Sequence record: NC_020079.1
Length of the DNA stretch: 64,000 nucleotides
From: Escherichia phage phAPEC8
Direction: 5' to 3' (one strand)
The notes under the pieces: model-generated
What the model saw: only the letters and a program-made list of their open reading frames with translations
What the model was told of the DNA's origin: nothing
Databases searched by the model: none
Made by a program: the position numbers and the translations under genes
Part shown: positions 3,412 through 27,520 of the stretch, in pieces
How the letters are laid out: the number at the start of each line of letters is the position of its first letter
How positions within the stretch are numbered: position 1 is the stretch's first letter

Positions 3412-4221
3412 TTAAATAAACACTTCAGTAATCAGTTTAGACAAACGTCCACGTTTATTATCGTCCGTTGTCAGTTCAACGTATCCAATAAAATCTACAA
3501 TTGGCTCACGAACACCTTCTTCATTTTCTGGATATAAAAGTTCCAAAATTTGATGCAGACCATTGCTACGTTTTTTAATTGCATATGTCTGGCGAACATC
3601 GCCTAATACAATAACATGCGTATTAATACCTGCACGTTCAATAAGAAGTTTAAGTGTTTCTGTTGACATAAGTTGTGCTTCGTCAATAATGACGATTGTA
3701 TTATCCAGGGTGGCCCCCAACAAATAGTTAGGAATATTCAATTCGATCTTACCTGATCCAATATCGTTTTCCAATTTGTTGGCTGTCATGAATTGCTGGA
3801 AAATACGTTTTGTAGATTCATAGTGTGCTGCTAGTTTATCTGTTTTATCCCCAGACAAGAAACCAATCTGGTCATCTCCTACTTCAGTAGGGTTCTTGAT
3901 AAAAAGTAGTTTACGGAAGTCTCCTGAACGAAGCATCTGCAAAGCTTTCCATAAAGCAACAGAGGTTTTACCAGTCCCTGCCGGAGCATTTACAACAGTC
4001 AGATCATTCCAGATCATGCTTTGAACAATCTTATTTTGGTCCCCTTCAGGCATAAATTCATCTAAACGGTAATCGTCATTACCTACCGCTTTTGCTGCAT
4101 AACGGCTTTCAATCTTTGCTGAATTAGCCAATTTCTGCCGTTGTGTTTTAGCTGCGGTTTTATTTCCCATAGTAGCACTCCTTTTAGAAGGGGCCGAAGC
4201 CCCTTTATTAGTTGTAAGCAT
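3412..4221 (-). CDS. phoH: PhoH-like ATPase
   Basis: Walker A NAPAGTGKTS and PhoH signature IGFLSGDKTDK. Confidence 0.8.
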   Translation of the reverse strand: MLTTNKGASAPSKRSATMGNKTAAKTQRQKLANSAKIESRYAAKAVGNDDYRLDEFMPEGDQNKIVQSMIWNDLTVVNAPAGTGKTSVALWKALQMLRSGDFRKLLFIKNPTEVGDDQIGFLSGDKTDKLAAHYESTKRIFQQFMTANKLENDIGSGKIELNIPNYLLGATLDNTIVIIDEAQLMSTETLKLLIERAGINTHVIVLGDVRQTYAIKKRSNGLHQILELLYPENEEGVREPIVDFIGYVELTTDDNKRGRLSKLITEVFI

Positions 4222-4708
4222 CTAAAGTTCCAGAAGTCAGAACTTTAATTACTCGTTCAGCACGGTTTGGCGTCTGGCTATACCATTGGCTTTTACGCAT
4301 GTTTTTACCTGCTTGAGTATAATATGCATTGCTGATTAAAGTCAAGCTATTTTGAAACCCTTCAGCACCTTTTAACCCCAACTGGAAAACCATGTTGATT
4401 ATTCCCAATTTACGAGTATCACTAACCTTATCATAGATTGGTGATAAGATAGCACTGTTTTTTATGTCTCTCTTCACTTTTGCAACATCGTCAGCAAAGA
4501 TTTGACGGGCTTCTTTTTCTGTGATAACTCCATTAGTCTTACGACCAAGAAGATTATCTAAGATTTGAATAGCCTTTGCTTTATCTTTTATTTTAGTCAG
4601 AAGGTGTCCTATGCCGACTGTCCAATAACCAAGATGGTCTTGATAAACAGTAAGCTTCAGTCCTTCATCGACTCGTAGCATATCAAACTCATCTACTACT
4701 TTAGCCAT
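4208..4708 (-). CDS. T4 e-type lysozyme (endolysin)
   Basis: Near-collinear with T4 lysozyme: MLRVDEGLKLTVYQD..GYWTVGIGHLL..INMVFQLG..WYSQTPNRAERVI. Confidence 0.85.
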   Translation of the reverse strand: MAKVVDEFDMLRVDEGLKLTVYQDHLGYWTVGIGHLLTKIKDKAKAIQILDNLLGRKTNGVITEKEARQIFADDVAKVKRDIKNSAILSPIYDKVSDTRKLGIINMVFQLGLKGAEGFQNSLTLISNAYYTQAGKNMRKSQWYSQTPNRAERVIKVLTSGTLDAYN

Positions 4709-4715
4709 TTACTTC

Positions 4716-4865
4716 CTATTCGTCGTCTCCTACTCCGTGATCCAACTCGTTAAACAACAGATGTTCTGGAGAAGTTTCACGTTTTGGTTTCGTTTTCTTT
4801 ATGTTGGACTTCAGCTCATTTGCCAAAGCACGAGAAAAGATCTTACGTTTCTGTTTACTTTTCAT
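4716..4865 (-). CDS. small basic hypothetical protein (49 aa)
   Basis: Hand-translated sub-threshold ORF with GGAG RBS; MKSKQKRKIFSRALANELK... Confidence 0.3.
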   Translation of the reverse strand: MKSKQKRKIFSRALANELKSNIKKTKPKRETSPEHLLFNELDHGVGDDE

Positions 4866-4870
4866 AATTG

Positions 4871-5131
4871 TTACTCCGCAATTTGAGCCATGAGATCACG
4901 CAGTTCGGTAAAACCGCCTACGTATGTTACCTCCCCGTTCACTTCAGACAGAATTTGTGGAAATGTGCGTGGAGGAACTCCGGTAAGATCAACAACTGTT
5001 TTAGTCATTGATTCTAAATCATAGTCTTGATCAAGACTTAAATATTCAAACTGTTTATTGCGCATGGTTAATAGTTGTTTTGACATTTCACAAAATTGAC
5101 AGTTAGGTTTACCAAAAATTACAAATTCCAT
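4871..5131 (-). CDS. glutaredoxin-like protein (NrdC/NrdH type)
   Basis: CQFC redox motif near N-terminus, TFPQI and GGF motifs; adjacent to the nrd genes. Confidence 0.65.
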   Translation of the reverse strand: MEFVIFGKPNCQFCEMSKQLLTMRNKQFEYLSLDQDYDLESMTKTVVDLTGVPPRTFPQILSEVNGEVTYVGGFTELRDLMAQIAE

Positions 5132-5973
5132 TACCTCTCCTTATTAAGTAATACTGCTAAAGACTGTTCAATACCTTTATTTAAATCTGATTTTGTAAGA
5201 TAGTGACTGGTTACTAGTTGTGACTTCATCGGACGTGCTGCTGGAGCATTATAGGTTGAAGCTGATACCGCCGATATCTTAACAGGTTCTGGCATCTGTG
5301 TCAAGATCTTTTCCGCAAACTCCGCCCAAGAAATAAGATGGCTTCCTGCAAAATGGTAAGTCTTAACAGACCTTGACCAACCTGTTCTTAATACTTCAAA
5401 AATAGCTTCTGCTAAATCTGGAGCATATGTTGGACAAGAGAACTGATCAGCAACAATAATAAAATCACGTTGTCCATCATTATAGCGAGACAACATGGTT
5501 TTTAGAAAGTTATTTCCAAATTCGCTATATACCGAGGCTGTTCGAATAATATATGCATTTGGGTTAACTCCTCGCACCATTTTTTCACCAAGTTCTTTCG
5601 TATACCCATAATTGTTTATTGGGTTAGGTGTAGTATCTTCAAAAATAGGATGAGAATAATTAAAAATATAGTCTGTAGAAATATGCACAAAATCAATTTT
5701 AAGTTTGCTGCACACTGCCGCAATATTTGCAGGTCCATACGCATTAACAGCCAAAGCAGTAGCAAAATCATGTTCTGCTTTATCTACAGCCGTATAAGCG
5801 GCGCAATTAATAACACCATCTACATAATCTTCAATAATAGCGTTTCGCACAGCTTCAAAATTTGTAATATCTACACGTTCTTTAGGATAAATTAAAGATA
5901 CATTTGAAGGAGCCACTTTACGTAAAGCTTGTCCCAGTTGTCCATTACCGCCCAATACCAGATATGTTAGCAT
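5131..5973 (-). CDS. rmlD: dTDP-4-dehydrorhamnose reductase
   Basis: GGNGQLG Rossmann motif, NCAAYTAVDKAE, STDYIF, YGYTK motifs matching RmlD. Confidence 0.85.
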   Translation of the reverse strand: MLTYLVLGGNGQLGQALRKVAPSNVSLIYPKERVDITNFEAVRNAIIEDYVDGVINCAAYTAVDKAEHDFATALAVNAYGPANIAAVCSKLKIDFVHISTDYIFNYSHPIFEDTTPNPINNYGYTKELGEKMVRGVNPNAYIIRTASVYSEFGNNFLKTMLSRYNDGQRDFIIVADQFSCPTYAPDLAEAIFEVLRTGWSRSVKTYHFAGSHLISWAEFAEKILTQMPEPVKISAVSASTYNAPAARPMKSQLVTSHYLTKSDLNKGIEQSLAVLLNKER

Positions 5974-6533
5974 ACACCCTCGCTACGTAACTGTTGAAAA
6001 GATTTAGCCATTGCATCTTTTGTTGATAGAATAGGTTTAAAACCTTCGTCAAAAATCATATCGAAGCCCCAATCGATCCCTATATCAGGATCATCCCAAC
6101 GTAAACTTTGTTCACTAGAAGGGTCGTATGGAGTTGTGCATTTGTATTCAAAGATAGCATCCATACTCAAAACTATAAAACCATGAGCCAAACCAGGCGG
6201 AAGCCAAAACTGCGTATGGTGTCGTGCACGAAGAACAACACCGTCCCAAGCACCGTAAGTTGGACTATCTTTACGTAAATCTACAGCGAAATCCAATACT
6301 TCCCCACTTACACAACGAACTAGCTTACCTTGCGGGTTATTTGTTTGAAAGTGCATTCCTCGCAAAACACCGAAGTTTGATTTAGACATGTTATCTTGAA
6401 CGAAAGTTTGTCTACCAATAATATCTTCGTATTTTTGTTCATTATATGTTTCTAGAAAGAAACCACGATCATCTTTATAAACGTCTGGTTTGATAATTAC
6501 CGCACCTTCAATTTTTGTTTTTTCTACTTTCAT
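5967..6533 (-). CDS. rmlC: dTDP-4-dehydrorhamnose 3,5-epimerase
   Basis: Start moved to the internal ATG at 6533 ([26 protein letters not shown]..), giving an ATGA overlap with rmlA; the track ORF extends 40 codons further into rmlA. Confidence 0.8.
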
Positions 6534-7408
6534 TTTCTCTCCGCTAATTTGAGTAGGTATTGCCCGTACTCTGTTTTCTTCAGTGAGTTTCCATGATACA
6601 CCAAAGTCTCTAAAGAAATCCACCCTTTTTTGAAAGCAATTTCTTCCAAGCACGCAATCTTCAATCCTTGACAGTTCTCAATAGTCTGCACGAATTGACC
6701 AGCTTCCATCAGACTGGCGTGTGTTCCTGTGTCAAGCCAAGTAAATCCTCGTCCGAGAACTTCCACTTGTAACTTCCTGTCTTCTAGGTAGCTGCGATTG
6801 ATATCAGTGATCTCCAGTTCTCCACGCGCGGAAGGGGTTACTTCTAATGCACGTTGAATAACAGAGTTATCATAGAAATACAAACCTGTGACAGCATAAT
6901 CTGATTTAGGATTTTCAGGTTTCTCTTCAATAGAAATAGCTTGACGATTACTCCCAAATTCAACCACACCGAATCGTTCAGGATCTTTCACCAAATACCC
7001 GAAAATACAAGCTCCGCCCCAAACATCTACCATCTCACTGGCGTTAATCAGTAGTTTACCAAAGCTTTGTCCGAAGAATAGGTTGTCACCTAAAATAAGA
7101 GCAACAGAGTCTTCTCCGATAAAATCTTTACCTATGATGAAAGCTTCCGCAAGACCTCGTGGCTCGGATTGGATTGCGTAAGTGAGTTTTATCCCAAACA
7201 TAGACCCATCTCCGAGAAGATACTCAAAGTCTTCCTGATCACCTGGTGTGGTGATGATTAAAATATCCTTAATGTCAGCCAACATCAATACCGATAAAGG
7301 GTAGTAGATCATGGGTTTGTCATACACAGGGAGCAATTGCTTGCTCACACTGCGTGTTACCGGATGAAGGCGGGTTCCACTTCCTCCCGCCAAAATAATA
7401 CCTTTCAT
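6530..7408 (-). CDS. rmlA: glucose-1-phosphate thymidylyltransferase
   Basis: [19 protein letters not shown]-terminal nucleotidyltransferase signature; 292 aa. Confidence 0.9.
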
Positions 7409-7416
7409 AACCCTCC

Positions 7417-8409
7417 TTAAATTTTCTCACTCCACCATTGAGGGTTGTTTAAGTACCATTCAATCGTTGAGTAGAGATCTTGTTCAAATGTAGAGTTTGC
7501 ACTCCAGCCCAGTTCAGACTCTATCTTAGAAGGATTGATTTCATAACGCAAGTCATGTCCTTTACGATCTTCAACAAAAGTTATCAAGTTGGAAGAAGGG
7601 TAGGTTACTGCTTCTGGATGTACAGTATCCATATAGTCACAAACCATATAGATGATCTCCATATTGGTTTTGGGATTACGTGTTCCAACATTATACGTTT
7701 GACCTGGTTCTCCACCTGTTGCCACTTGAAGAATAGCTCGCGCATGATCCTCAACAAAAAGCCAGTCTCGCACCTGGTCGCCTTTACCATACACCGGAAT
7801 CTCTTTATTCGTCAAGATACTTGTGATGATTTTTGGGATCAGCTTTTCTGGATGTTGATAAGGCCCAAAGTTATTGGAGCAGTTGGTTATCACAACAGGC
7901 AAATCGTAGGTGCGGTGCCAAGCTTTCACAAGATGGTCAGATGCTGCCTTAGACGCACTGTACGGGCTTGAAGGGGCATAAGCTGTCTCTTCGGTAAAGG
8001 GAACGCCAGAGTCTGCCATATCGCCGTACACTTCGTCTGTGGAGACGTGTACGAACATCTTCAGTTTATTTTTTGGGAGGAGCCTTGCAGCTTCCAATAA
8101 ATTGTATGTACCGATAATATTGGAGTCGATGAAAACTCGTGGATTCTTGATAGAATTATCCACATGACTTTCTGCCGCTAAGTGAATGATGAAGTCAGGA
8201 TTGCACTCTACTACTAAACTTTTGACCTGGGTTTCGTTTGCCAAATCTGTCATGCTTAGTTTAACGTGAGTGATATCGCCTACATTCTCAATATCTGCTG
8301 CATAGCCCATCTTATCAACGACAAAAACTTCGTTATTAGGATCTTGACAAAGAGAGCGCACCACGGCACTCCCAATAAAACCAAGACCACCTGTTACCAG
8401 ATAGCGCAT
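7417..8409 (-). CDS. rmlB: dTDP-glucose 4,6-dehydratase
   Basis: [24 protein letters not shown] and YSASK motifs of SDR dehydratases; 330 aa. Confidence 0.9.
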
Positions 8410-8418
8410 CAGTTCTCC

Positions 8419-8745
8419 TTACCAGACATGTTGAGAAATAATAGTTTCCGTTTTAATGTTATATTTTTCAAGTAGCTTTGCATAGGCTTCTTTTGCATTC
8501 TCATTCAATTGCTCAAGATCTACAGCTATGCTTCCCTCTCCGCCTTCTAAATCAAGGCCATATATGCAATAAGACTCATCCGCATCGTAGAAAGGAGAGA
8601 TGCGGCTTAAGTCCAGACCTTCTTGTAAGAACCAGTTAAAATCTCCATCAAATTCTTCTTCAATTCTAGGATCTTCTCCTACAGCCTCTTCCCATTTATT
8701 AAAAGGTGCACCCTGTAACATACGCCATTCAATATCAATACCCAT
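8419..8745 (-). CDS. hypothetical acidic protein (108 aa)
   Basis: ORF track. Confidence 0.4.
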   Translation of the reverse strand: MGIDIEWRMLQGAPFNKWEEAVGEDPRIEEEFDGDFNWFLQEGLDLSRISPFYDADESYCIYGLDLEGGEGSIAVDLEQLNENAKEAYAKLLEKYNIKTETIISQHVW

Positions 8746-8920
8746 TTTTCATCTCCTCCTCTTCTTGAGCAGCTTTAATAATTGCTTCATAAATATCGTA
8801 AGCAATGCCTCCACAACATCTAGCTTCGAAAGCTATTGCTTCTGCAATGTGATCTGTTAATTCTCGTGGAATACGGACATACTCTTTTTCATTCTCCATC
8901 TTCCACCTCTTCTTTTTCAA
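8735..8920 (-). CDS. hypothetical protein; true start probably the internal ATG (MENEKEY..)
   Basis: ORF track (TTG-started); internal ATG overlaps the stop of the upstream zinc-ribbon ORF. Confidence 0.35.
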   Translation of the reverse strand: MKKKRWKMENEKEYVRIPRELTDHIAEAIAFEARCCGGIAYDIYEAIIKAAQEEEEMKNGY

Positions 8921-9035
8921 AGACTACTACTCGTCCCTCACCATGACAATTCAGGCAAGGAAATGTTACCATAATTTCCACTTCCATCTGTCCAGTCCCA
9001 CCGCACACAGGACAAAAAATAAGTTTTTCAGCCAT
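8889..9035 (-). CDS. small zinc-ribbon protein (48 aa)
   Basis: Hand-translated: MAEKLIFCPVCGG...CLNCHGEG; two CxxC pairs; start overlaps the upstream stop (TAATG). Confidence 0.35.
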   Translation of the reverse strand: MAEKLIFCPVCGGTGQMEVEIMVTFPCLNCHGEGRVVVFEKEEVEDGE

Positions 9036-9244
9036 TATTCCTCCTTAATTATTTCAAACTTGGCAACACCATTTACAATAATATGACCACAAGACATAAC
9101 TCCTAGCCAAGGATCGCCGTTTTTCTTCAGGCGTTTACCGAATACATCACAAAAACCATTCTTCATTTCGGAGGCTTCATAAGAAGCCCCTTTATCAAAA
9201 ACGTCTTTGAATGTGTCGATTATACCAACACATCTCAAAATCAT
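9035..9244 (-). CDS. hypothetical protein (69 aa)
   Basis: ORF track. Confidence 0.4.
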   Translation of the reverse strand: MILRCVGIIDTFKDVFDKGASYEASEMKNGFCDVFGKRLKKNGDPWLGVMSCGHIIVNGVAKFEIIKEE

Positions 9245-10329
9245 TAGAAGTCAAGCTCCTCATCATCAGAGAGATCTTTGTTAGCTGAATTCAATTTGTA
9301 ATTAGTTAACTGAATCTCTTGGGCTGCTGACTGAATCAAATCAGGATTCAACCATTTTTCCATCCAAGCTAAAGGACTATGTTTAGGTGCTTTAAACTTG
9401 GCTTTCATTTTCAATCGACGATAAATAGGAGCAGCATTGAAATAAACCCACTGTTTAGACAATTCGGCGTTAAGACCTACAATAAAACGACCTTCACTAA
9501 ACAGGTAGTCACACCACTGTTCCTCTTGTTCAACAACAGTGTCGAGGATCAAAGTCAACTCTTCAATATTGTCTTCGTAAATTTTACGCCAAATTGGGTC
9601 ATGCATCAATGCATCAATTACAGCATAATCCATCTTAACATGCAAGATTTCATCTAGCATAATTTTCTGGATCAGTTTACAAGCCCCAACAAACAGTTGT
9701 TGTTCTGCCATAGCAAAAGTAGCAGAGAAGGAAGATATAAACTGAATACCTTCTAATCCAATCAGGGCTACCATCCCTTTAAGAATCAACAATCGAAGTT
9801 CATCGTTAGCTTCAATCAATCCTAGAGCATACTTATGACCAGCTTCTTCCAACTGACCCATGATATCAGCAATGATACCCATACGATTGAAAATTTTATC
9901 ATTAACCATAATCTGATTGATGACTTCAATTGGATCTGGAGTACATTGGCGGATTATTTCAGAATACGTTAACGCATGGAGAACTTCCATTTCACTCTGC
10001 TTCATCATCATAGCACAGGCTTCATTGTTACTCAAGAATGGAGAGAACAAAGTGATGATTGATTTTGCAAGAGAATCATTTTCCCATTGGAACGATAAGT
10101 TTTTAATCATAACGTCATAGTTGTTTTTAGAACAAGCTACGAAATCTTTACGTGTCTGATCCAGATTAACTTCGTTTTCATCCCAATCTTGTGCTTTTTG
10201 AAGTTTGTAGAGTTTGTGCATTTCTGGATAAGTTACGTTAACAGAATCAAAGATCCCTAATTGCTCCCCCAAAAATACTGGATATTTCCCTGTCTTGTAA
10301 ACTTCGTTGTGTAAATTAATTGCTGCCAT
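9244..10329 (-). CDS. nrdB: ribonucleotide reductase class Ia small subunit
   Basis: 361 aa, adjacent to nrdA; length and overall pattern fit the R2 ferritin-like subunit. Confidence 0.75.
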   Translation of the reverse strand: MAAINLHNEVYKTGKYPVFLGEQLGIFDSVNVTYPEMHKLYKLQKAQDWDENEVNLDQTRKDFVACSKNNYDVMIKNLSFQWENDSLAKSIITLFSPFLSNNEACAMMMKQSEMEVLHALTYSEIIRQCTPDPIEVINQIMVNDKIFNRMGIIADIMGQLEEAGHKYALGLIEANDELRLLILKGMVALIGLEGIQFISSFSATFAMAEQQLFVGACKLIQKIMLDEILHVKMDYAVIDALMHDPIWRKIYEDNIEELTLILDTVVEQEEQWCDYLFSEGRFIVGLNAELSKQWVYFNAAPIYRRLKMKAKFKAPKHSPLAWMEKWLNPDLIQSAAQEIQLTNYKLNSANKDLSDDEELDF

Positions 10330-20854: not shown

Positions 20855-21037
20855 TTATTTAAAATAGCTTTCTAGAAAGTTGCTAATATTTACTACAGAC
20901 TCACCCATGTAAATCCCTGCGAAACCGAAAACAAGCATACGTGGAATATTGAAATACCATTTATCTGCCGGAAAAGATGCCAGAATTACAATAGCAATTG
21001 CTATCAACATCATAAGAATTGTTGCTAAAATTATCAT
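20855..21037 (-). CDS. small membrane protein (60 aa)
   Basis: Strongly hydrophobic N-terminal half. Confidence 0.35.
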   Translation of the reverse strand: MIILATILMMLIAIAIVILASFPADKWYFNIPRMLVFGFAGIYMGESVVNISNFLESYFK

Positions 21038-21090
21038 AAAAATGCCTCCAGGTATTTTTCACAATGATAAGCTAAGAACATTTTTCCTCC

Positions 21091-22218
21091 TTATTCTGCT
21101 GGTTCCCAAGTGCCTGGGATCATTTCTCGAATACGAACACCAACAGGTTTTGTTGGAATACCTTCATCTGAAAATTCTTCATACTCTATTTCAACGAACT
21201 GATTAATCAAGGTAGAAGCATTCTCTGCTTTACGATAATTGATAGTCTCATGAGCATCTTTACGCATTAAGAATTCGACTACTTTACCATTTTCCATCTC
21301 GCCTGTCAACACTCCATCACCATTTTTATCACTTTTTGAATTTATTACTTTAACTTCAAGCGTATGACGAGGCTTACGTTTAATAACATCATAAGAACGT
21401 TTATCAAATTCGTAAACTCCGTGAGCATTACGATATACTACACCTTCAGCTTTCTCAAGTAAAGCTTTTTCATAGAAAGCATCAAACTGTTCTTGGTTTT
21501 CAATATACTCTGTATGAACTACACAAATAAGCTCATCAAGACCATAATCCTCCACTACTGCCTTAAGAGCAGTAAGAACATCAACACGTTTTTCAAACGG
21601 TAGATCTGGAACTGGAATATCGTATACGTAATAGTTCAGCAAAGGTGTATTTGCATTATGCTTCTTCCAGGCACTGTTAATTTGTTGTAGACTAAGGACA
21701 CCTAACCCAGCAAACACTTCACCATCAAGAGGATGACCAACAACTTCACTAATAAAGTTTGGAATACCTTTCCAATGAGGTGGCAGGTTATACACTTCCC
21801 CAGCTTTTGATAAACACTCCCCTTTCATGTTAATCATAGAACGTAACCCGTTCAGTTTGTATTGTGCATAACCAGGGAACACAACCCTTTCAGGATAATC
21901 TTTATAATCCTGGCATTTCATTGGTGTGGAAGGAACATGGTTTTCAGCTTCTTCTTTTGTTTTATAATAGCCATTCTTTAACTGTTTTGTCCATTTGGCA
22001 AAAGCTTCAAGTTCAGCTTGTTCTTCCGGTGTTGTTTCATTGGAACGACCAATGTTTTTTGCTTCTGCTGTATAAGATTTTTCTGTGATTTTTCCACCTA
22101 CCCTTCCATGAGCTACAGTAACAACTGCACCATCTGTATACACTGTCCACTGTTTAAGTTTTCCTTTTGAATCTTTACCATACAGCGTTTGATTTGTTTG
22201 TTGCATTAGTCCTCCCAT
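21091..22218 (-). CDS. putative ATP-dependent DNA ligase (nucleotidyltransferase superfamily)
   Basis: KLNGLR at about residue 121 fits the ligase motif I Kx(D/N)GxR; 375 aa. Confidence 0.45.
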   Translation of the reverse strand: MGGLMQQTNQTLYGKDSKGKLKQWTVYTDGAVVTVAHGRVGGKITEKSYTAEAKNIGRSNETTPEEQAELEAFAKWTKQLKNGYYKTKEEAENHVPSTPMKCQDYKDYPERVVFPGYAQYKLNGLRSMINMKGECLSKAGEVYNLPPHWKGIPNFISEVVGHPLDGEVFAGLGVLSLQQINSAWKKHNANTPLLNYYVYDIPVPDLPFEKRVDVLTALKAVVEDYGLDELICVVHTEYIENQEQFDAFYEKALLEKAEGVVYRNAHGVYEFDKRSYDVIKRKPRHTLEVKVINSKSDKNGDGVLTGEMENGKVVEFLMRKDAHETINYRKAENASTLINQFVEIEYEEFSDEGIPTKPVGVRIREMIPGTWEPAE

Positions 22219-22538
22219 TTAAAAACTGAAATTTTCAATCTGTTACACACTTCATCCAAATCTGCGTCGAGTAACGTTGTAGATGTTGCCAACATATAAT
22301 CAATGCTTGTGAAACCTTGCCCTTTGGCATAGTCAAACATATCTTCATACATATCTTCTTCAGTCCCGAAACAGAAGTCACCCAAATGCCACATCTTGAC
22401 ACCTGGACTCGTAGCGCATTTATTCCATGCTTCGATCAGTGCTTCTGTCATGTGGTCCATATCTTCCCACGGTCGATATTCAGGAGCAAACTCTCGTATA
22501 CGTTTGTGCATAAAATGCAAATCACTTGTAATAAACAT
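22206..22538 (-). CDS. hypothetical protein with metallophosphoesterase-like N-terminal motifs
   Basis: SDLHFMH ... HLGDF motifs; only 110 aa. Confidence 0.3.
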   Translation of the reverse strand: MFITSDLHFMHKRIREFAPEYRPWEDMDHMTEALIEAWNKCATSPGVKMWHLGDFCFGTEEDMYEDMFDYAKGQGFTSIDYMLATSTTLLDADLDEVCNRLKISVFKWED

Positions 22539-22894
22539 TAGTATAATCCCTCGCTAAATAGGTCACGATCATGACCATTACGTTCGTAGTCAATCTGGTC
22601 TGCGTGTTTTGCAATAATGTATGCATCTTCACGACTCCACCAATTGTAGTATTGATCAATAAAACCTTGATTGTTTGGAAGACAATGCACTTTATCAAGC
22701 ACACCTGCTTCTTTCAATACATTCAACTGTGTAGATAATACAGGATTTGCATGTCGAACACAAGGAATAATTAACTCTTCACCATTATTCAAAATATACT
22801 TATTCGCAGCACAGACTATAACACGTTGCGCATAATGACCCTCACCAATCCAGGTAAGAGGCTGGTAACAAATGTTGTTTTCAATACCACTCAT
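22538..22894 (-). CDS. hypothetical protein (118 aa)
   Basis: ORF track; GAGGAGG RBS. Confidence 0.4.
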   Translation of the reverse strand: MSGIENNICYQPLTWIGEGHYAQRVIVCAANKYILNNGEELIIPCVRHANPVLSTQLNVLKEAGVLDKVHCLPNNQGFIDQYYNWWSREDAYIIAKHADQIDYERNGHDRDLFSEGLY

Positions 22895-22900
22895 TGTTTC

Positions 22901-23044
22901 CTAATCCTCCTCTCTTAAGTTATCCTCTAAAAAGCTAGTATCTGGAAGTAAAAGATCATTACTTGTGTCGGGCCAACCCTCTTCTTCTCGGTAGATAAAG
23001 TAACCTTCGTCCTCTTCTTGTTCTGACCAAACCGAATGATGCAT
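22901..23044 (-). CDS. small acidic hypothetical protein (47 aa)
   Basis: Hand-translated sub-threshold ORF with AAGGAGA RBS filling the gap between track ORFs. Confidence 0.3.
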   Translation of the reverse strand: MHHSVWSEQEEDEGYFIYREEEGWPDTSNDLLLPDTSFLEDNLREED

Positions 23045-23053
23045 GTTCTCTCC

Positions 23054-23398
23054 TTAATAGTGCACACGAATCATTTTAATACCATAACGCAGCATGGATT
23101 CTTTTGCAAGCATGAATTTATCCCCAGCGGCGGGATTAGAAGTATGCACGAAAATGGTAGGTGAACCAAAGCAAGGTTTACCAAACGCCAGAAGTTCTTC
23201 CAGGTACAGGAAAACATCATACCCATCTTGGTCTGACTCCATACCTAAATCATTGTCAAAAGACCACTCGGTTACTCTTCGATACAGTTTAGCAGGATCA
23301 TTAAGAAAAGCCATAGCTTCTTGTGACGTTTTAAACCAAATTGCATCTTCCTGTCCATAGTCGGCTGGGTTCCGCATATCATCTATCCAAACTTTCAT
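23054..23398 (-). CDS. hypothetical protein (114 aa)
   Basis: ORF track. Confidence 0.4.
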   Translation of the reverse strand: MKVWIDDMRNPADYGQEDAIWFKTSQEAMAFLNDPAKLYRRVTEWSFDNDLGMESDQDGYDVFLYLEELLAFGKPCFGSPTIFVHTSNPAAGDKFMLAKESMLRYGIKMIRVHY

Positions 23399-23408
23399 AT
23401 AACCTCCT

Positions 23409-23879
23409 CTAAGCTGGCATGATTAAAAAAGAACTCTCCACTTCAAAATGCCAATCCTCCACAAGCCCTGATTCCCAGTCCTTCTCTTCGTGGAAGGAAC
23501 AGATCCAACGGTACATTCCTGGCGGTGTATTCTCCACATCTTCCGGCAACCCATAATCCAAGGCTGTCTTGCCATTCTCTGTAAAACCAGGGTGGAGATT
23601 AGGAGCTTTCAGTACAGAAACCATACCTCCAACATCCACAGCTACGATCCACTCTGTCATGTATGGGCTGTCATATTGAGGCTCATCAGAACCTACCTCA
23701 ACAGCCTCTGTGCGTAAGATGATAATAGGCTGCTCTGTGATTGGGGCTTTGACAATATAACCGTGGTCCTCAAAAAGATCGATAACCTCGAACTCATCGC
23801 CGTTTTCGACACCATAGCTCTTATTCAAAGAGATAAACTTCGGGTTATCATCATAAGCTTTAGTTACTTTAATTCTCAT
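23409..23879 (-). CDS. hypothetical protein (156 aa)
   Basis: ORF track. Confidence 0.4.
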   Translation of the reverse strand: MRIKVTKAYDDNPKFISLNKSYGVENGDEFEVIDLFEDHGYIVKAPITEQPIIILRTEAVEVGSDEPQYDSPYMTEWIVAVDVGGMVSVLKAPNLHPGFTENGKTALDYGLPEDVENTPPGMYRWICSFHEEKDWESGLVEDWHFEVESSFLIMPA

Positions 23880-24100
23880 TTTCCCTCCTTCACTTTAACC
23901 TCAAATTCTACAGGCTTACCCTCAATGTAAAAACACTGATACTCTGCCTTATCATCCTCATCACGAGGCCAAGTTACCAAGGAGTTATAGCAATCTTCTG
24001 GTGCTTTGAAGATGGTTTTAGTCTCCATAGTAACATTCCCATTAAGTGTTGCCAATACCACCCACCCAGCTACAGGGATCATAGTGCCTCCACTTTCCAC
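23876..24100 (-). CDS. hypothetical protein (74 aa)
   Basis: ORF track; 4-nt overlap with neighbour. Confidence 0.35.
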   Translation of the reverse strand: MESGGTMIPVAGWVVLATLNGNVTMETKTIFKAPEDCYNSLVTWPRDEDDKAEYQCFYIEGKPVEFEVKVKEGK

Positions 24101-24261
24101 GTTTTACCCTTATCAACCAAGGTCTTTGCTACAGCATACTCCTTCCCATTAACAAGGAAATAATAAACTATAAAAGATTTCCCGATTGTTACTGTCTTAG
24201 TAACCTCTACACGTTTAACACCTTGCATGTATTTTGCCTTACCGGAATAGAGTAAAATCAT
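24079..24261 (-). CDS. hypothetical protein (60 aa)
   Basis: ORF track. Confidence 0.3.
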   Translation of the reverse strand: MILLYSGKAKYMQGVKRVEVTKTVTIGKSFIVYYFLVNGKEYAVAKTLVDKGKTWKVEAL

Positions 24262-24539
24262 TTTGCATTCCTCTTGTTGTTGATAACATCCATAGCAGTA
24301 TATGGTTTATTAGTGCCATGATACTCTAGAATCATTGGAGAGCCTTCTTGCACTACTTCAAAAATACCATAAACAGAACTTTCAGCAAATACCATTTGCT
24401 TCGTTCCTTCATCGTTTACAACGAGAGAAAACTTCTTACCTGTCCCGTTGAGGATCTCGTATTTCTTGCCAGCAGTGAATAATCCAGAGTACCACTCACT
24501 ATCTGTTGCTTTTACACACTTCAGGAAAGTCTTGATCAT
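24258..24539 (-). CDS. hypothetical protein (93 aa)
   Basis: ORF track. Confidence 0.35.
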   Translation of the reverse strand: MIKTFLKCVKATDSEWYSGLFTAGKKYEILNGTGKKFSLVVNDEGTKQMVFAESSVYGIFEVVQEGSPMILEYHGTNKPYTAMDVINNKRNAK

Positions 24540-24889
24540 TTCTTTTTGCTCCTCTTCTTAGATTTATCATACAAACCTAACACAGCAGCCTCTTTTGCAC
24601 AAGTAGGGACTGAAGTCATTCCTCTTCGCTTTGCATCGGGCAGGTTGAGCGTCCACCATCCGAACCAGTAGATTTGGTCTTCCGTGAGTGGTTCAGCCAT
24701 TGGATCTGCCTCCTGCTTCTCAAGACGTTGCAACGCTTCTTCAATCTTCTCAATTGGTGTGTCAAAGACGAATGCCTCCGTATCAAACTTATCTTTCTTA
24801 GGAACTGATTTGGCTACTTTGAGAACCTCGTTTTTCGGTTTCTTAGTAACGTTCTTTGGCTTTGATAACTTCTTCGGTGTTTTCGCCAC
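24536..24889 (-). CDS. hypothetical lysine-rich protein (117 aa)
   Basis: ORF track; very basic N- and C-termini. Confidence 0.35.
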   Translation of the reverse strand: MAKTPKKLSKPKNVTKKPKNEVLKVAKSVPKKDKFDTEAFVFDTPIEKIEEALQRLEKQEADPMAEPLTEDQIYWFGWWTLNLPDAKRRGMTSVPTCAKEAAVLGLYDKSKKRSKKK

Positions 24890-25082
24890 TTACTACCTCC
24901 ATACGATCTAAAAAGTCATTCACAAATCTCCAATAACGTTGACCTGTTCTAAGATCTTCATAGATAACAACAGGATCAAACACTTTAGATATTCCGGCAG
25001 GTTTTGGAAATTCCACGACCGTATATAAGCCACCTTTTGATACACAAGAATAGGTTACACCTGTAATTGGATATTTGCTCAT
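24843..25082 (-). CDS. hypothetical protein (79 aa)
   Basis: ORF track. Confidence 0.3.
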   Translation of the reverse strand: MSKYPITGVTYSCVSKGGLYTVVEFPKPAGISKVFDPVVIYEDLRTGQRYWRFVNDFLDRMEVVSGENTEEVIKAKERY

Positions 25083-25273
25083 TTCTTTACGTACTCCATG
25101 ATTGGGGTATGGTCGCCAGTGAGCGTCACACGGTTGTAGGAAACGTTTTGTGTCTTCAACGTCTCAACCCATTCCAGGAAATGTTCTTTCGCTTCTGTGT
25201 AGTTCTGGGTGCCTTTAACAACATGAATATCATCCAGGGTGACACGGAATACCATTTGAATAACGTCTTTCAT
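25079..25273 (-). CDS. hypothetical protein (64 aa)
   Basis: ORF track. Confidence 0.3.
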   Translation of the reverse strand: MKDVIQMVFRVTLDDIHVVKGTQNYTEAKEHFLEWVETLKTQNVSYNRVTLTGDHTPIMEYVKK

Positions 25274-25386
25274 TTCTTACCTCCTTTGTTGTCAAAATAG
25301 CTTACCAGAACATCGTGAACCACACAAATGGCAAAAATCAGAACAATTGTTGCCAGGATTGGGTTCTCACTAATTAGTGCTATCAT
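25270..25386 (-). CDS. very small membrane protein (38 aa)
   Basis: Internal ATG with GGAGGTGG RBS inside the track ORF 25270..25467; hydrophobic core. Confidence 0.3.
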   Translation of the reverse strand: MIALISENPILATIVLIFAICVVHDVLVSYFDNKGGKK

Positions 25387-25693
25387 CTTTAACCACCTCC
25401 AATTGCCTTTCGAGTTTGACTCTGTTTGAGAACTGATAATGACACAACTTACATTGCATGTCAACAATCTGATCGTGATTTAACCCTACAATTTTAACTT
25501 CCTTTGCACCATCCCACTCCAAATACTCAAAGCCATCCAAATGATTACTCTTGTCCAACAGGAATGCTATCTGCTGCCATTCAATCTGAATGTCATTTAA
25601 ATGATATGCTGCACAGAAGATATCCTCATAGTAAAAGACGATCATTGTCATTGCTTCGTCCAGCACAACTACTTCTTGTCTTGTAAATCTCAT
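25370..25693 (-). CDS. hypothetical protein, first gene of the leftward block (107 aa)
   Basis: ORF track; begins right after the divergent intergenic region. Confidence 0.4.
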   Translation of the reverse strand: MRFTRQEVVVLDEAMTMIVFYYEDIFCAAYHLNDIQIEWQQIAFLLDKSNHLDGFEYLEWDGAKEVKIVGLNHDQIVDMQCKLCHYQFSNRVKLERQLEVVKDDSTN

Positions 25694-26164
25694 TCTAGCC
25701 TCCTAAACGCGTCTCTGACGCACTTTTTATATATAAGATGATAAATCACCTTACCTAGTAAGTAAGCTTGCTCTACGAGCCTCTTATGAAGCTTAAGTTA
25801 TACTATTGCTACCTGTTTAAGCAAGGTTTTGCACACAGAAAATAATTTTTAATAAAACTCTTGACTTTTGTGTTCGAAGTATGCTACCCTAGAAATCTAT
25901 TAACGAGCGCAGCGAGTTAAGGTTTTAGGTTGTTGATGTAGTACTCTGTACTAAAGCACTGTACTCCGTACTAGATTAATAATTATTAAATATTAATAAA
26001 TAATTATTAGATCTAACAAACAGGTACAGTGTATCAGAACTGGTACGTACATATCAACTTCTATCAATTAAAAAATAAAATAATAAATTATTATAAATAA
26101 TACTTGATCTATAAATCAGTATGAAGTACAGTACGTAACATCTTAACAAGAATGGAGGTGTGCA
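25694..26164. promoter_or_regulatory. divergent AT-rich control region between the leftward and rightward gene blocks
   Basis: About 470 nt without a credible ORF; GTAC-containing repeats (GTACTCTGTACT, CTGTACTCCGTACT, GTACAGT, GTACGTAC) and AT-only near-palindromes. Confidence 0.45.
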
Positions 26165-26350
26165 ATGATTAGTGAGAATCCGTGCAAATGGCATCATGTG
26201 CCTATTAAAGATTGTATGTCTTGTAATCCACGTTCTATTTATAACATTGCATCTTATGATGATGACAATGTGTTAGACGATGATGAAGGCTGGGAGGATT
26301 TAGATTGGACTGGTTATGAAACCAAAAAGGATAAAATTATTCCTAGTTGA
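26165..26350 (+). CDS. small Cys-containing acidic protein (61 aa)
   Basis: ORF track; GGAGG RBS. Confidence 0.4.
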   Translation: MISENPCKWHHVPIKDCMSCNPRSIYNIASYDDDNVLDDDEGWEDLDWTGYETKKDKIIPS

Positions 26351-26387
26351 CTTAAGATATCCTTCGTGCTAAACTAGAAGTGAGGAG

Positions 26388-26639
26388 ATGCCGATCACTC
26401 CCCATTTGGGGTTCGAAGGATATATGCAAAATAGCTTTTATTTTAGGTGCCGTGCTTGTAATAGGCATTTGACAAACCACTCCAGACGTGATAAAAATGG
26501 AGTCATCAAGGAATCAGACCTCTGTTCTATTTGCACAGGTTTGGCTTTTGATGATAGTCCCGAAAGGGTTTATCAGCATCAATGTATAACAGACGTTCTC
26601 GTGTCAAACTTGGTAGAGGACGAACAACTAACAGATTAG
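26388..26639 (+). CDS. zinc-ribbon protein (83 aa)
   Basis: CRACN ... CSIC Cys pairs. Confidence 0.4.
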   Translation: MPITPHLGFEGYMQNSFYFRCRACNRHLTNHSRRDKNGVIKESDLCSICTGLAFDDSPERVYQHQCITDVLVSNLVEDEQLTD

Positions 26640-26647
26640 GAGGAACA

Positions 26648-26896
26648 ATGTCTCTATTAGAAAAACACGTGTTTGAAGATGGTAACGGCAATGCAGTTTT
26701 TCTTTTCCATCCAGAAAAATACACATCTGAAAACAATGGTACAACTTCTATTGTAATCACTAAAGATGTTAAAGTTATTGATTTCTTGGCTCTGATGCGA
26801 GAGATGGATCTTGAAATTAATACTTTTAACGCAGAAGCTTTGGTTGTTGCTCTTCTGGAAAAGAAAGATAGTGAAGAAGTAGCAGAATATGCTTAA
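26648..26896 (+). CDS. hypothetical protein
   Basis: Start moved to the ATG at 26648 (MSLLEKH..) with AGGAGG RBS; track ORF starts earlier in the overlap. Confidence 0.4.
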   Translation: MSLLEKHVFEDGNGNAVFLFHPEKYTSENNGTTSIVITKDVKVIDFLALMREMDLEINTFNAEALVVALLEKKDSEEVAEYA

Positions 26897-26903
26897 ATAA
26901 CTA

Positions 26904-26933
26904 TTGACAAACGTATCCTTCATATGTTAGGAT
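26904..26933 (+). promoter_or_regulatory. sigma70-like promoter upstream of the tRNA operon leader
   Basis: CTATTGACA -35 box, about 17-nt spacer, weak TAnnnT -10. Confidence 0.4.
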
Positions 26934-27142
26934 ACGTTCATCAAGTGTGGTAACAGGGTCGTTGACTTTTGTTAAGAGGGGCTTGCACTGCGGTAGTGTT
27001 AGAGACTACTTCTTCAGAGGTTAGCTACCAAAGAGGAAAAGGAATAGTCTCGGCTCAAGAACTTTTACGCTGAAAGTTGGGCTTGGTCTTAGAGAATGTA
27101 GCGGTTCTCTACAATCGTCAGCGTCTCTGTTACCACATTTAT

Positions 27143-27217
27143 GGCCCTGTAGCTCAATGGGAGAGCTGTCGGCTCATAACCGATAGGTAGCTGGATCGAA
27201 ACCAGCCAGGGCCACCA
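27143..27217 (+). tRNA. tRNA-Met (anticodon CAT)
   Basis: Hand-folded cloverleaf: acceptor GGCCCTG/CAGGGCC, anticodon loop CTCATAA, encoded CCA; T-loop ATCGAAA. Confidence 0.7.
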
Positions 27218-27219
27218 AC

Positions 27220-27294
27220 GTCTTTATGGTGTAATGGATAGCACAGGAGTCTTCTAAACTCTTAGTCAAGGTTCGATTCCTTGTAAAGACACCA
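27220..27294 (+). tRNA. tRNA-Arg (anticodon TCT)
   Basis: Acceptor GTCTTTA/TAAAGAC, anticodon loop CTTCTAA, T-arm CAAGG-TTCGATT-CCTTG, CCA. Confidence 0.7.
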
Positions 27295-27490
27295 GAACAT
27301 TTTAACATGAATTAGCTCAAGTGATTTGAACCCACTACTGATCATGGTGGCAGAGAATGAGGCAAGTATGTCAGACATTATAAACAAAGGCCACGGTTAC
27401 ATTAGAAGACATAAATGCTCGAAGAGCACCGTTCGTGGAGAACGGGGGTTGGTGGAGTCACCATTCATGGTAAAATGTTTTAAAAAACTA

Positions 27491-27520
27491 TTGACAACTA
27501 ACATTATTTTATGTTAGATT
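27491..27520 (+). promoter_or_regulatory. sigma70-like promoter inside the tRNA operon
   Basis: CTATTGACA, 17-nt spacer, TTAGAT/TAGATT -10; a few nt upstream of tRNA-Ser. Confidence 0.45.

Follow-up and report, generated by a model that had tools for sequence, protein, structure and literature searches.

What is encoded by the dense run of small genes that heads one arm of the genome of Escherichia phage phAPEC8, the type member of Phapecoctavirus (Stephanstirmvirinae), and does it serve to counter host defences? In the 64,000-nucleotide stretch of this genome that we analysed (record NC_020079.1; hereafter, the window), the block occupies positions 22206-25693. A sequence-only reading had described it as about 14 promoter-proximal open reading frames (ORFs) of 38-156 aa with no recognisable homologs, at a typical location for host-takeover and anti-defence genes. 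The coordinates and ORF sizes were exact and the block is real, but it holds 13 ORFs (p1-p13, corresponding to phAPEC8_00139 down to 00127), all of them co-oriented on the minus strand. Nor do they lack homologs: all 13 match a PHROG family, Pfam assignments were obtained for four, and p10 (cREC), p12 (T4_Y16D), p9 (DUF8046) and the N-terminus of p13 (a phosphoesterase) have recognisable relatives. (The Pfam-A copy used gives no reports for PF26092 and PF26219, and its nulls are thus not conclusive for recent families.) Our analysis suggests, with a probability of about 0.7, that the block consists of nine early-arm genes (p1-p9) followed by the remnant of an RNA (tRNA) healing-and-sealing cassette (p10-p13).

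The evidence for a remnant begins with p13 (phAPEC8_00127; 22206-22538; 110 aa), which protein alignment identifies as an in-frame chimera. Residues 1 to ~60 are the N-terminus of a calcineurin-like metallophosphoesterase (...GDFCFGTEED), and residues ~61-110 are the last 50 codons of a 73-aa gene that precedes the DNA ligase gene in relatives (MYEDM...KWED). PHROG searches matched phrog_547 (phosphoesterase) to residues 1-65 (E = 2.7e-19) and phrog_16431 to residues 38-110. The metallophosphoesterase motif set is incomplete: DLH (residues 6-8) and GD (53-54) are kept, but GNHD and everything beyond it are replaced by unrelated sequence. p13 has no Pfam match at E ≤ 0.1; its full-length homologs match Metallophos or Metallophos_2 (PF00149/PF12850). 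BLAST against the relative Schickermooser places the junction in a 7-bp microhomology, TATCTTC (GAAGATA on the coding strand), at 22352-22358: window positions 21071-22358 align with 572-1859 of the Schickermooser sequence (L001), and 22352-27699 with 4166-9517, leaving a segment of 2,306 bp that is absent from phAPEC8. Nearly all of 120 relatives carry this segment (57 of them cover at least 80% of it), and no junction-spanning record was found among the 120. Justusliebigvirus records cover its kinase-ligase-phosphoesterase part, about 74-75% of the missing-segment query, and the kinase and ligase are absent from few relatives, such as phiWec188/190, AV126 and PsgM04F. p13 arose by a 2,306-bp microhomology-mediated deletion that fused two gene stumps in frame. 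Lost in the event were the genes of an Rnl1-type RNA ligase and of a P-loop kinase, a further three small genes, and the catalytic two-thirds of the metallophosphoesterase. The name "Lar family" given to a lost 63-aa zinc-ribbon gene was rejected, as no Pfam match was obtained.

Might the chimera be an assembly artefact, or the ORFs of the block chance or non-coding frames? The chimera has been recorded in a single assembly, and one ORF, p2, shows no purifying selection. However, a clean 7-bp microhomology with in-frame fusion is what is expected of a viable natural deletion, and at 147.7 kb the phAPEC8 genome falls short of most of the listed Phapecoctavirus relatives (~148-156 kb). Coding sequence takes up 99.3% of the block, all on one strand, and a Shine-Dalgarno (SD)-like motif precedes each of the 13 ORFs. 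The tight packing with overlapping stop and start codons that had been described was borne out, with overlaps of 1-4 nt at eight junctions and of 17 and 47 nt at p1/p2 and p4/p5. Synonymous changes far exceed non-synonymous ones in 11-12 ORFs: Nei-Gojobori (NG86) ratios of non-synonymous to synonymous substitution (dN/dS) against Schickermooser and phiWec188 are 0.04-0.26 in 11 of the 13. In phi92, a phage of a different genus, ten of the ORFs occur in the same order at 43-83% amino acid identity, with the proportion of non-synonymous differences (pN) far below that of synonymous differences (pS); p2, p8 and p9 are absent there. The ORFs of the block are real genes, and we consider chance frames or an artefactual chimera highly improbable. 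The surrounding DNA (22000-26200) is 95-96.5% identical to that of more than 50 Phapecoctavirus genomes. All ten encoded proteins queried by exact sequence are identical to annotated phAPEC8_00127-00139 proteins, and the sequences of p11, p12 and p13 are on record from the phAPEC8 genome alone. As a whole, the block is an ordinary feature, annotated since the record was deposited, mostly as "hypothetical protein".

The context of the deletion is provided by relatives in which the segment is complete. In Schickermooser, SKA64 and phi92, cREC is followed by an acidic peptide of ~47 aa, T4_Y16D, a metallophosphoesterase, an Rnl1-type RNA ligase and a kinase-like gene, and then by a coiled-coil protein, a zinc-ribbon peptide, a 73-aa protein, DNA ligase and MazG. 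The proteins of these relatives at the position of the phAPEC8 junction match Metallophos, RNA_lig_T4_1 (PF09511, E = 5.9e-15) and AAA_33 (kinase-like), such that cREC, T4_Y16D and the metallophosphoesterase adjoin an Rnl1-type RNA ligase and a polynucleotide-kinase-like P-loop protein. Phage T4 uses Pnkp and Rnl1 to repair tRNA cut by host anticodon nucleases, and the three relatives share the domain set and gene order of T4 Pnkp+Rnl1 and V5/PVP-SE1-type systems. By analogy, their cassette would process the 2',3'-cyclic phosphate and 5'-OH ends that these nucleases create and join the tRNA halves again. Comparative genomics of V5-like phages describes a neighbourhood of Rnl1, cREC, kinase and MazG, with or without calcineurin (PMC9503650).

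phAPEC8 resembles the V5/PVP-SE1-type systems in having cREC, a metallophosphoesterase N-terminus, MazG and DNA ligase at corresponding positions. It differs in that its window contains neither an RNA ligase nor a 5'-kinase, its phosphoesterase is truncated after motif II and no sirtuin was identified in the block, making it a remnant rather than a working member. Tblastn with the Schickermooser Rnl1 found no match in the 64-kb window, and the AAA_33 kinase-like gene of relatives (the candidate 5'-polynucleotide kinase) likewise had no match there. The deletion would have taken the ligase, the kinase and the core of the phosphoesterase, leaving cREC and T4_Y16D intact; with ligase and kinase gone, the sealing pathway should be non-functional, and phAPEC8 would be unable to repair cleaved tRNA by the cassette route. 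Of the two candidates for 3'-end healing in phAPEC8, the metallophosphoesterase is truncated and cREC is intact, with an activity that is predicted only.

The intact cREC (cyclic-phosphate processing receiver) domain is that of p10 (phAPEC8_00130; 23054-23398; 114 aa), which passes the gathering threshold of the cREC_REC family (PF20274) with 63.1 bits against 27 (E = 3.9e-17; profile positions 1-83 of 88). Its ortholog in phi92, gp100, is 46% identical to p10 and scores 54.3 bits to PF20274, and the two proteins have D6, D7, D48, D50 (FDNDLG) and HTSNP (85-89) in common. D6, D7 and D48/D50 would form a receiver-type acidic active site, with two aspartates after strand 1 and one after strand 3 (assignment following PMC9503650). 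Selection on p10 is purifying, with dN/dS of 0-0.13. The cREC domain was defined by comparative genomics as a predicted phosphoesterase of 2',3'-cyclic phosphates or of ADP-ribose cyclic phosphate (ADPr>P), with links to the RNA ligases and kinases of phages, to MazG and to calcineurin-like phosphoesterases (PMC7824862, PMC9503650). We predict that p10 is likewise a 2',3'-cyclic phosphate/ADPr>P phosphoesterase. The next gene, p11 (phAPEC8_00129; 22901-23044; 47 aa; phrog_18323), encodes an extremely acidic peptide (16 Asp and Glu residues, net charge -14) that is 73% identical to phi92 gp099 (pN 0.17 versus pS 0.68). A different ORF, with 26% identity, takes its position in phiWec188.

Between p11 and the chimera lies p12 (phAPEC8_00128; 22538-22894; 118 aa), a member of the T4_Y16D family (PF26092): this family is precomputed on all 44 homologs considered, including a cluster representative that is 98% identical. 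An alignment of 22 T4_Y16D members shows invariant R47, H48, Q76, G77, F78, D80, R88, S114 and Y118, the polar residues among which suggest an active site. Structure prediction gave a confident AlphaFold model of p12 (predicted local distance difference test score, pLDDT, 93.2), but the search of its fold found no solved structure or structural relative for T4_Y16D. The fold is spread over many phage lineages in BFVD, where almost all of its members are named uncharacterised, and it is also found inside "large polyvalent proteins". In three of seven contigs with distant T4_Y16D members, a metallophosphoesterase, an NAD-dependent DNA ligase or an Rnl2-type RNA ligase is encoded no more than three genes away, a weak lead towards linkage with ligases and phosphoesterases.

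Several records name p12 homologs "anti-restriction nuclease", a label we reject. In BLASTP searches, p12 is 44% identical (E = 1e-30) to a 153-aa ORF located between arn and motA of a T4-like phage. T4 Arn itself is a McrBC inhibitor of ~92 aa. In AV115, a 93-aa ORF adjoins the anti-sigma gene and is taken from the T4 map to be Arn; p12 gave no significant match to it (E = 0.79). p12 thus has a homolog in the T4 arn-motA cluster without being similar to the ORF at the Arn position, and the label is a positional name transfer because the true homolog is the 153-aa ORF adjoining arn.

Several observations weigh against reading p10-p13 as a cassette remnant downstream of early genes. For cREC, T4_Y16D and the metallophosphoesterase alike, a role in RNA repair is itself a prediction from sequence. 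T4_Y16D has a ligase or phosphoesterase nearby in just three of the seven distant lineages sampled, and has none in T4-like phages. The search for a second RNA ligase covered 64 of the 147.7 kb of the genome, and the deletion, on record from a single assembly of 2012, might be an assembly error. The terms "early" and "one transcript" are positional, and the sole promoter evidence is a consensus match ~330 nt upstream of the block. Finally, cREC and T4_Y16D are intact and under purifying selection in phiWec188 and AV126, both of which are likewise without the ligase and kinase.

Because they are intact without a ligase or kinase, cREC and T4_Y16D may have a job that is independent of RNA ligation. 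One possibility is that cREC, T4_Y16D and DUF8046 form a ligase-independent module that still functions in phAPEC8, for example by degrading immune signals derived from cyclic phosphates or ADP-ribose. The genes have dN/dS of 0.04-0.15 and persist in at least two types of lineage that have no ligase and kinase (phAPEC8; AV126/phiWec188), and a divergent contig from a metagenome shows the order DUF8046-cREC-x-x-T4_Y16D again. The invariant polar residues of T4_Y16D are consistent with catalysis, and cREC is predicted to act on ADPr>P or cyclic ADP-ribose (cADPr) derivatives besides RNA ends (PMC7824862, PMC9503650). However, this evidence is contextual, intact ORFs may simply not have decayed since the ligase was lost, and phi92 is without DUF8046; we consider such a module unlikely. 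A bolder proposal is that T4_Y16D is a new enzyme that processes nucleic-acid ends or nucleotide signals, and that cREC (joined in Phapecoctavirus by DUF8046) is its partner in a counter-defence module that needs no ligase. The domain is widespread and phage-only, with an invariant polar set (RH...QGF-D...R...SE-LY), and a module of this kind would explain why the genes are intact in phAPEC8, AV126 and phiWec188 after loss of ligase and kinase; we nevertheless rate this proposal as quite unlikely.

phAPEC8 offers a natural knock-out: it has lost genes for RNA ligase, kinase and phosphoesterase that are retained in almost all of the ~120 relatives. Comparison of phAPEC8 with the near-identical ESCO13 and Schickermooser would address directly whether the cassette protects against tRNA-cleaving defences, and the same comparison bears on whether cREC and T4_Y16D depend on the ligase for their action.

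The nine promoter-proximal genes present a different picture. In searches of Pfam, NCBIfam and PDB sequences, p1-p8 returned sub-threshold noise only, and p1, p3, p6, p7 and p8 have no informative similarity. The first gene after the control region, p1 (phAPEC8_00139; 25370-25693; 107 aa), encodes an acidic protein that matches AFU62711 exactly and phrog_14390 with E = 7e-61, is 43% identical to phi92 gp106 and has no match in Pfam, NCBIfam or PDB; it is preceded by AGGAGG and has a dN/dS of 0.06-0.07. p2 (phAPEC8_00138; 25270-25386; 38 aa; phrog_26968) is a mini membrane peptide with one hydrophobic helix (grand average of hydropathicity, GRAVY, 1.06). It is the least certain gene of the block and the only ORF without a signal of selection: against phiWec188, where it is not annotated, it shows two synonymous and nine non-synonymous changes, weak support for a gene. 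p3 (phAPEC8_00137; 25079-25273; 64 aa; phrog_15683) matches AFU62709 exactly, with 54% identity to phi92 gp105 and dN/dS of 0.06-0.26. p4 (phAPEC8_00136; 24843-25082; 79 aa; dN/dS 0.10) is possibly DUF1653-like: its match to DUF1653 (PF07866) is sub-threshold (13.5 bits, where 23.5 are required; E = 0.099), the corresponding stretch of phi92 gp104 gives E = 0.077, and the phi92 record mentions a "DUF1653 like fold".

p5 (phAPEC8_00135; 24536-24889; 117 aa, from a GTG start) encodes a basic protein (net charge +10) with Lys-rich ends, of which residues 24-117 match phrog_6208. It is 68% identical to phi92 gp103, whose note cites likeness to PVP-SE1 gp102, and is the sole part of the block with DNA matches in Vequintavirinae-like phages. 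The label "transposase-like" found in records was rejected, as there is no transposase match in Pfam or NCBIfam and no precomputed Pfam family on 66 homologs. p6 (phAPEC8_00134; 24258-24539; 93 aa; phrog_10169) matches AFU62706 exactly and is 65% identical to phi92 gp102 (dN/dS 0.10-0.15). p7 (phAPEC8_00133; 24079-24261; 60 aa; phrog_15376) encodes a basic protein with dN/dS of 0.04-0.14, found by tblastn in 123 phage records, most of them named as Escherichia phages related to phAPEC8 and phi92. One source names it "modifier of suppressor tRNAs", which we reject given that no T4-like phage occurs among the 30 of the 123 matches that are listed. p8 (phAPEC8_00132; 23876-24082; phrog_15821) is 68 aa long from its ATG, or 74 aa from a GTG at 24100, and is genus-specific (dN/dS 0.07 against phiWec188).

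The largest product, a strongly charged one, is that of p9 (phAPEC8_00131; 23409-23879; 156 aa; net charge -19). Its structural model comprises an N-terminal SH3-like beta-barrel (residues ~1-62) and a C-terminal DUF8046 beta domain (~65-155), the latter without a structural match. DUF8046 (PF26219) is precomputed on all 68 homologs considered, and a phmmer search aligned 90 cluster representatives to residues ~60-153. A name used by one source, "integron-associated effector binding/GyrI-like", is unsupported by this model. In SKA64, an extra 609-bp gene for a "putative DNA binding protein" lies between cREC and DUF8046 (positions 4999-5607 of its sequence, L004).

As judged from sequence searches, p1-p9 are restricted to phAPEC8/phi92-like phages (Stephanstirmvirinae), apart from the p5 matches in Vequintavirinae-like phages. 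They are conserved subfamily genes under purifying selection rather than a hypervariable accessory island, and nothing that we found marks these nine remaining small genes as unusual. For the type phage, the corrected annotation amounts to four family assignments, the removal of three misleading product names and the recognition of one deletion chimera.

These data bear on the idea that the block as a whole encodes early host-takeover or anti-defence effectors (inhibitors of restriction, CRISPR or abortive infection), as in the early genes of T4 and T7. The block lies first after the divergent control region, and its products are small, several of them strongly charged: p11 (-14 in 47 aa) and p9 (-19), in the manner of DNA mimics, and p5 (+10). 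There is also local gene flux, seen in the 609-bp gene of SKA64, the extra ORF and replaced p11 of phiWec188 and the absence of p2, p8 and p9 from phi92. In a T4-like phage, the p12 homolog belongs to the early arn-motA cluster, and the occurrence of the T4_Y16D fold inside large polyvalent proteins also fits. However, no ORF matched a characterised anti-defence or host-takeover protein in PHROG, Pfam, NCBIfam or PDB (searched without a dedicated library of anti-defence hidden Markov models), and the "anti-restriction nuclease" label is a positional transfer. Ten of the 13 genes keep their order across two genera under purifying selection, which is unlike typical hypervariable anti-defence islands. 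We regard an effector role for the whole block as possible but doubtful. For the nine promoter-proximal ORFs, no known host-takeover, anti-restriction or anti-CRISPR family was found, and their PHROG matches are all of "unknown function". The proposed host-takeover or anti-defence location thus finds homology support in cREC, T4_Y16D and the truncated metallophosphoesterase and none in p1-p9, and by homology an anti-defence function is indicated for the decayed RNA-repair cassette only.

The preferred reading, early-arm genes followed by a cassette remnant, also draws on the genomic setting. As had been claimed, the block directly follows the control region, which is a 471-bp divergent intergenic region (25694-26164) at the start of the leftward arm. 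Beyond the block, this arm continues with DNA ligase, a MazG-like pyrophosphohydrolase, RdgC, an RNase H-like protein, ThyX and both ribonucleotide-reductase subunits, and this downstream content indicates that the block heads the DNA-metabolism arm. The rightward arm holds three small ORFs, 11 tRNA genes, the large terminase and the portal, and the sign of GC skew changes at ~26 kb. Like the immediate-early cluster of T4 and the pre-early cluster of T5, the block packs ORFs of 40-160 aa, coupled in translation and for the most part confined to their lineage, directly behind a divergent control region; unlike them, it is conserved in the manner of core subfamily genes, and except for p12 it has no sequence relationship to either. 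Its position at the head of the arm and the T4 analogy make early expression of the block plausible. From position, p1-p9 are most likely made early, and the 13 genes probably share a single transcript with the DNA ligase and MazG genes that follow. Literature searches found neither a transcriptome nor a functional analysis that covers this region in Phapecoctavirus or Stephanstirmvirinae.

Within the control region, a consensus scan gave as the best leftward candidate a sigma-70-like promoter with an extended -10 element (TTGATA-18-TGaTACACT, 26057->26028), a consensus match only, whose TTGAT and TG elements also appear in phiWec188 by alignment. Aligning Schickermooser, phiWec188 and phi92 with phAPEC8 revealed non-coding blocks that are kept from phAPEC8 to phi92 while the surrounding spacer is not; in minus-strand sense, these are GAGGTAAGGTGATT at 25744-25757 and CTCGCTGCGCTCGTT...TAGGGTAGCATACTT at ~25877-25925. 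They were considered and rejected as recurrent phage promoters, each being unique in the window and fitting no sigma-70 spacing, and could instead be a regulator site or an origin element. No structured RNA or leader was detected in the control region (no Rfam match; fold z-score -0.12). In phiWec188, an extra 70-aa ORF occupies the leader upstream of the p1 homolog (positions 6703-6915 of its sequence, L005).

At the other end of the block, the ATP-dependent DNA ligase (21091-22206, minus strand; named from the annotation of homologs; SD motif GGAGG) starts by homology at the ATG at 22206 (371 aa), overlapping the p13 stop by 1 nt; the version in the program-made ORF list begins 12 nt upstream, at 22218 (375 aa). 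Immediately beyond the ligase gene, at 21037-21091, is a second small deletion of ~140 bp relative to Schickermooser (L001 433-571). It takes most of a 64-aa hydrophobic ORF (gp108) between a 60-aa ORF and DNA ligase, of which the last 14 codons alone are left in phAPEC8.

Just across the control region from the RNA-repair remnant are the 11 tRNA genes (27143-29148; Met, Arg, Ser, Tyr, Asn, Thr, Gly, Gln, Pro, Ile and Met). Phage tRNAs are another known route around tRNA-targeting defences. Directly to the right of its control region, phi92 carries a different pair of genes, gp107-gp108 (positions 7082-9780 of its sequence, L006), which are phosphoribosyl pyrophosphate (PRPP)-synthetase-like and nicotinamide phosphoribosyltransferase-like and resemble an NAD+ salvage pathway; phAPEC8 has the three small ORFs and the tRNAs there. 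Further along the DNA-metabolism arm, at 7417-8409, lies a gene of the GDP-mannose 4,6-dehydratase/NAD-dependent epimerase family (Pfam E = 6e-80), a sugar-nucleotide enzyme that is unexpected in this arm and could be linked to surface-glycan or DNA modification.

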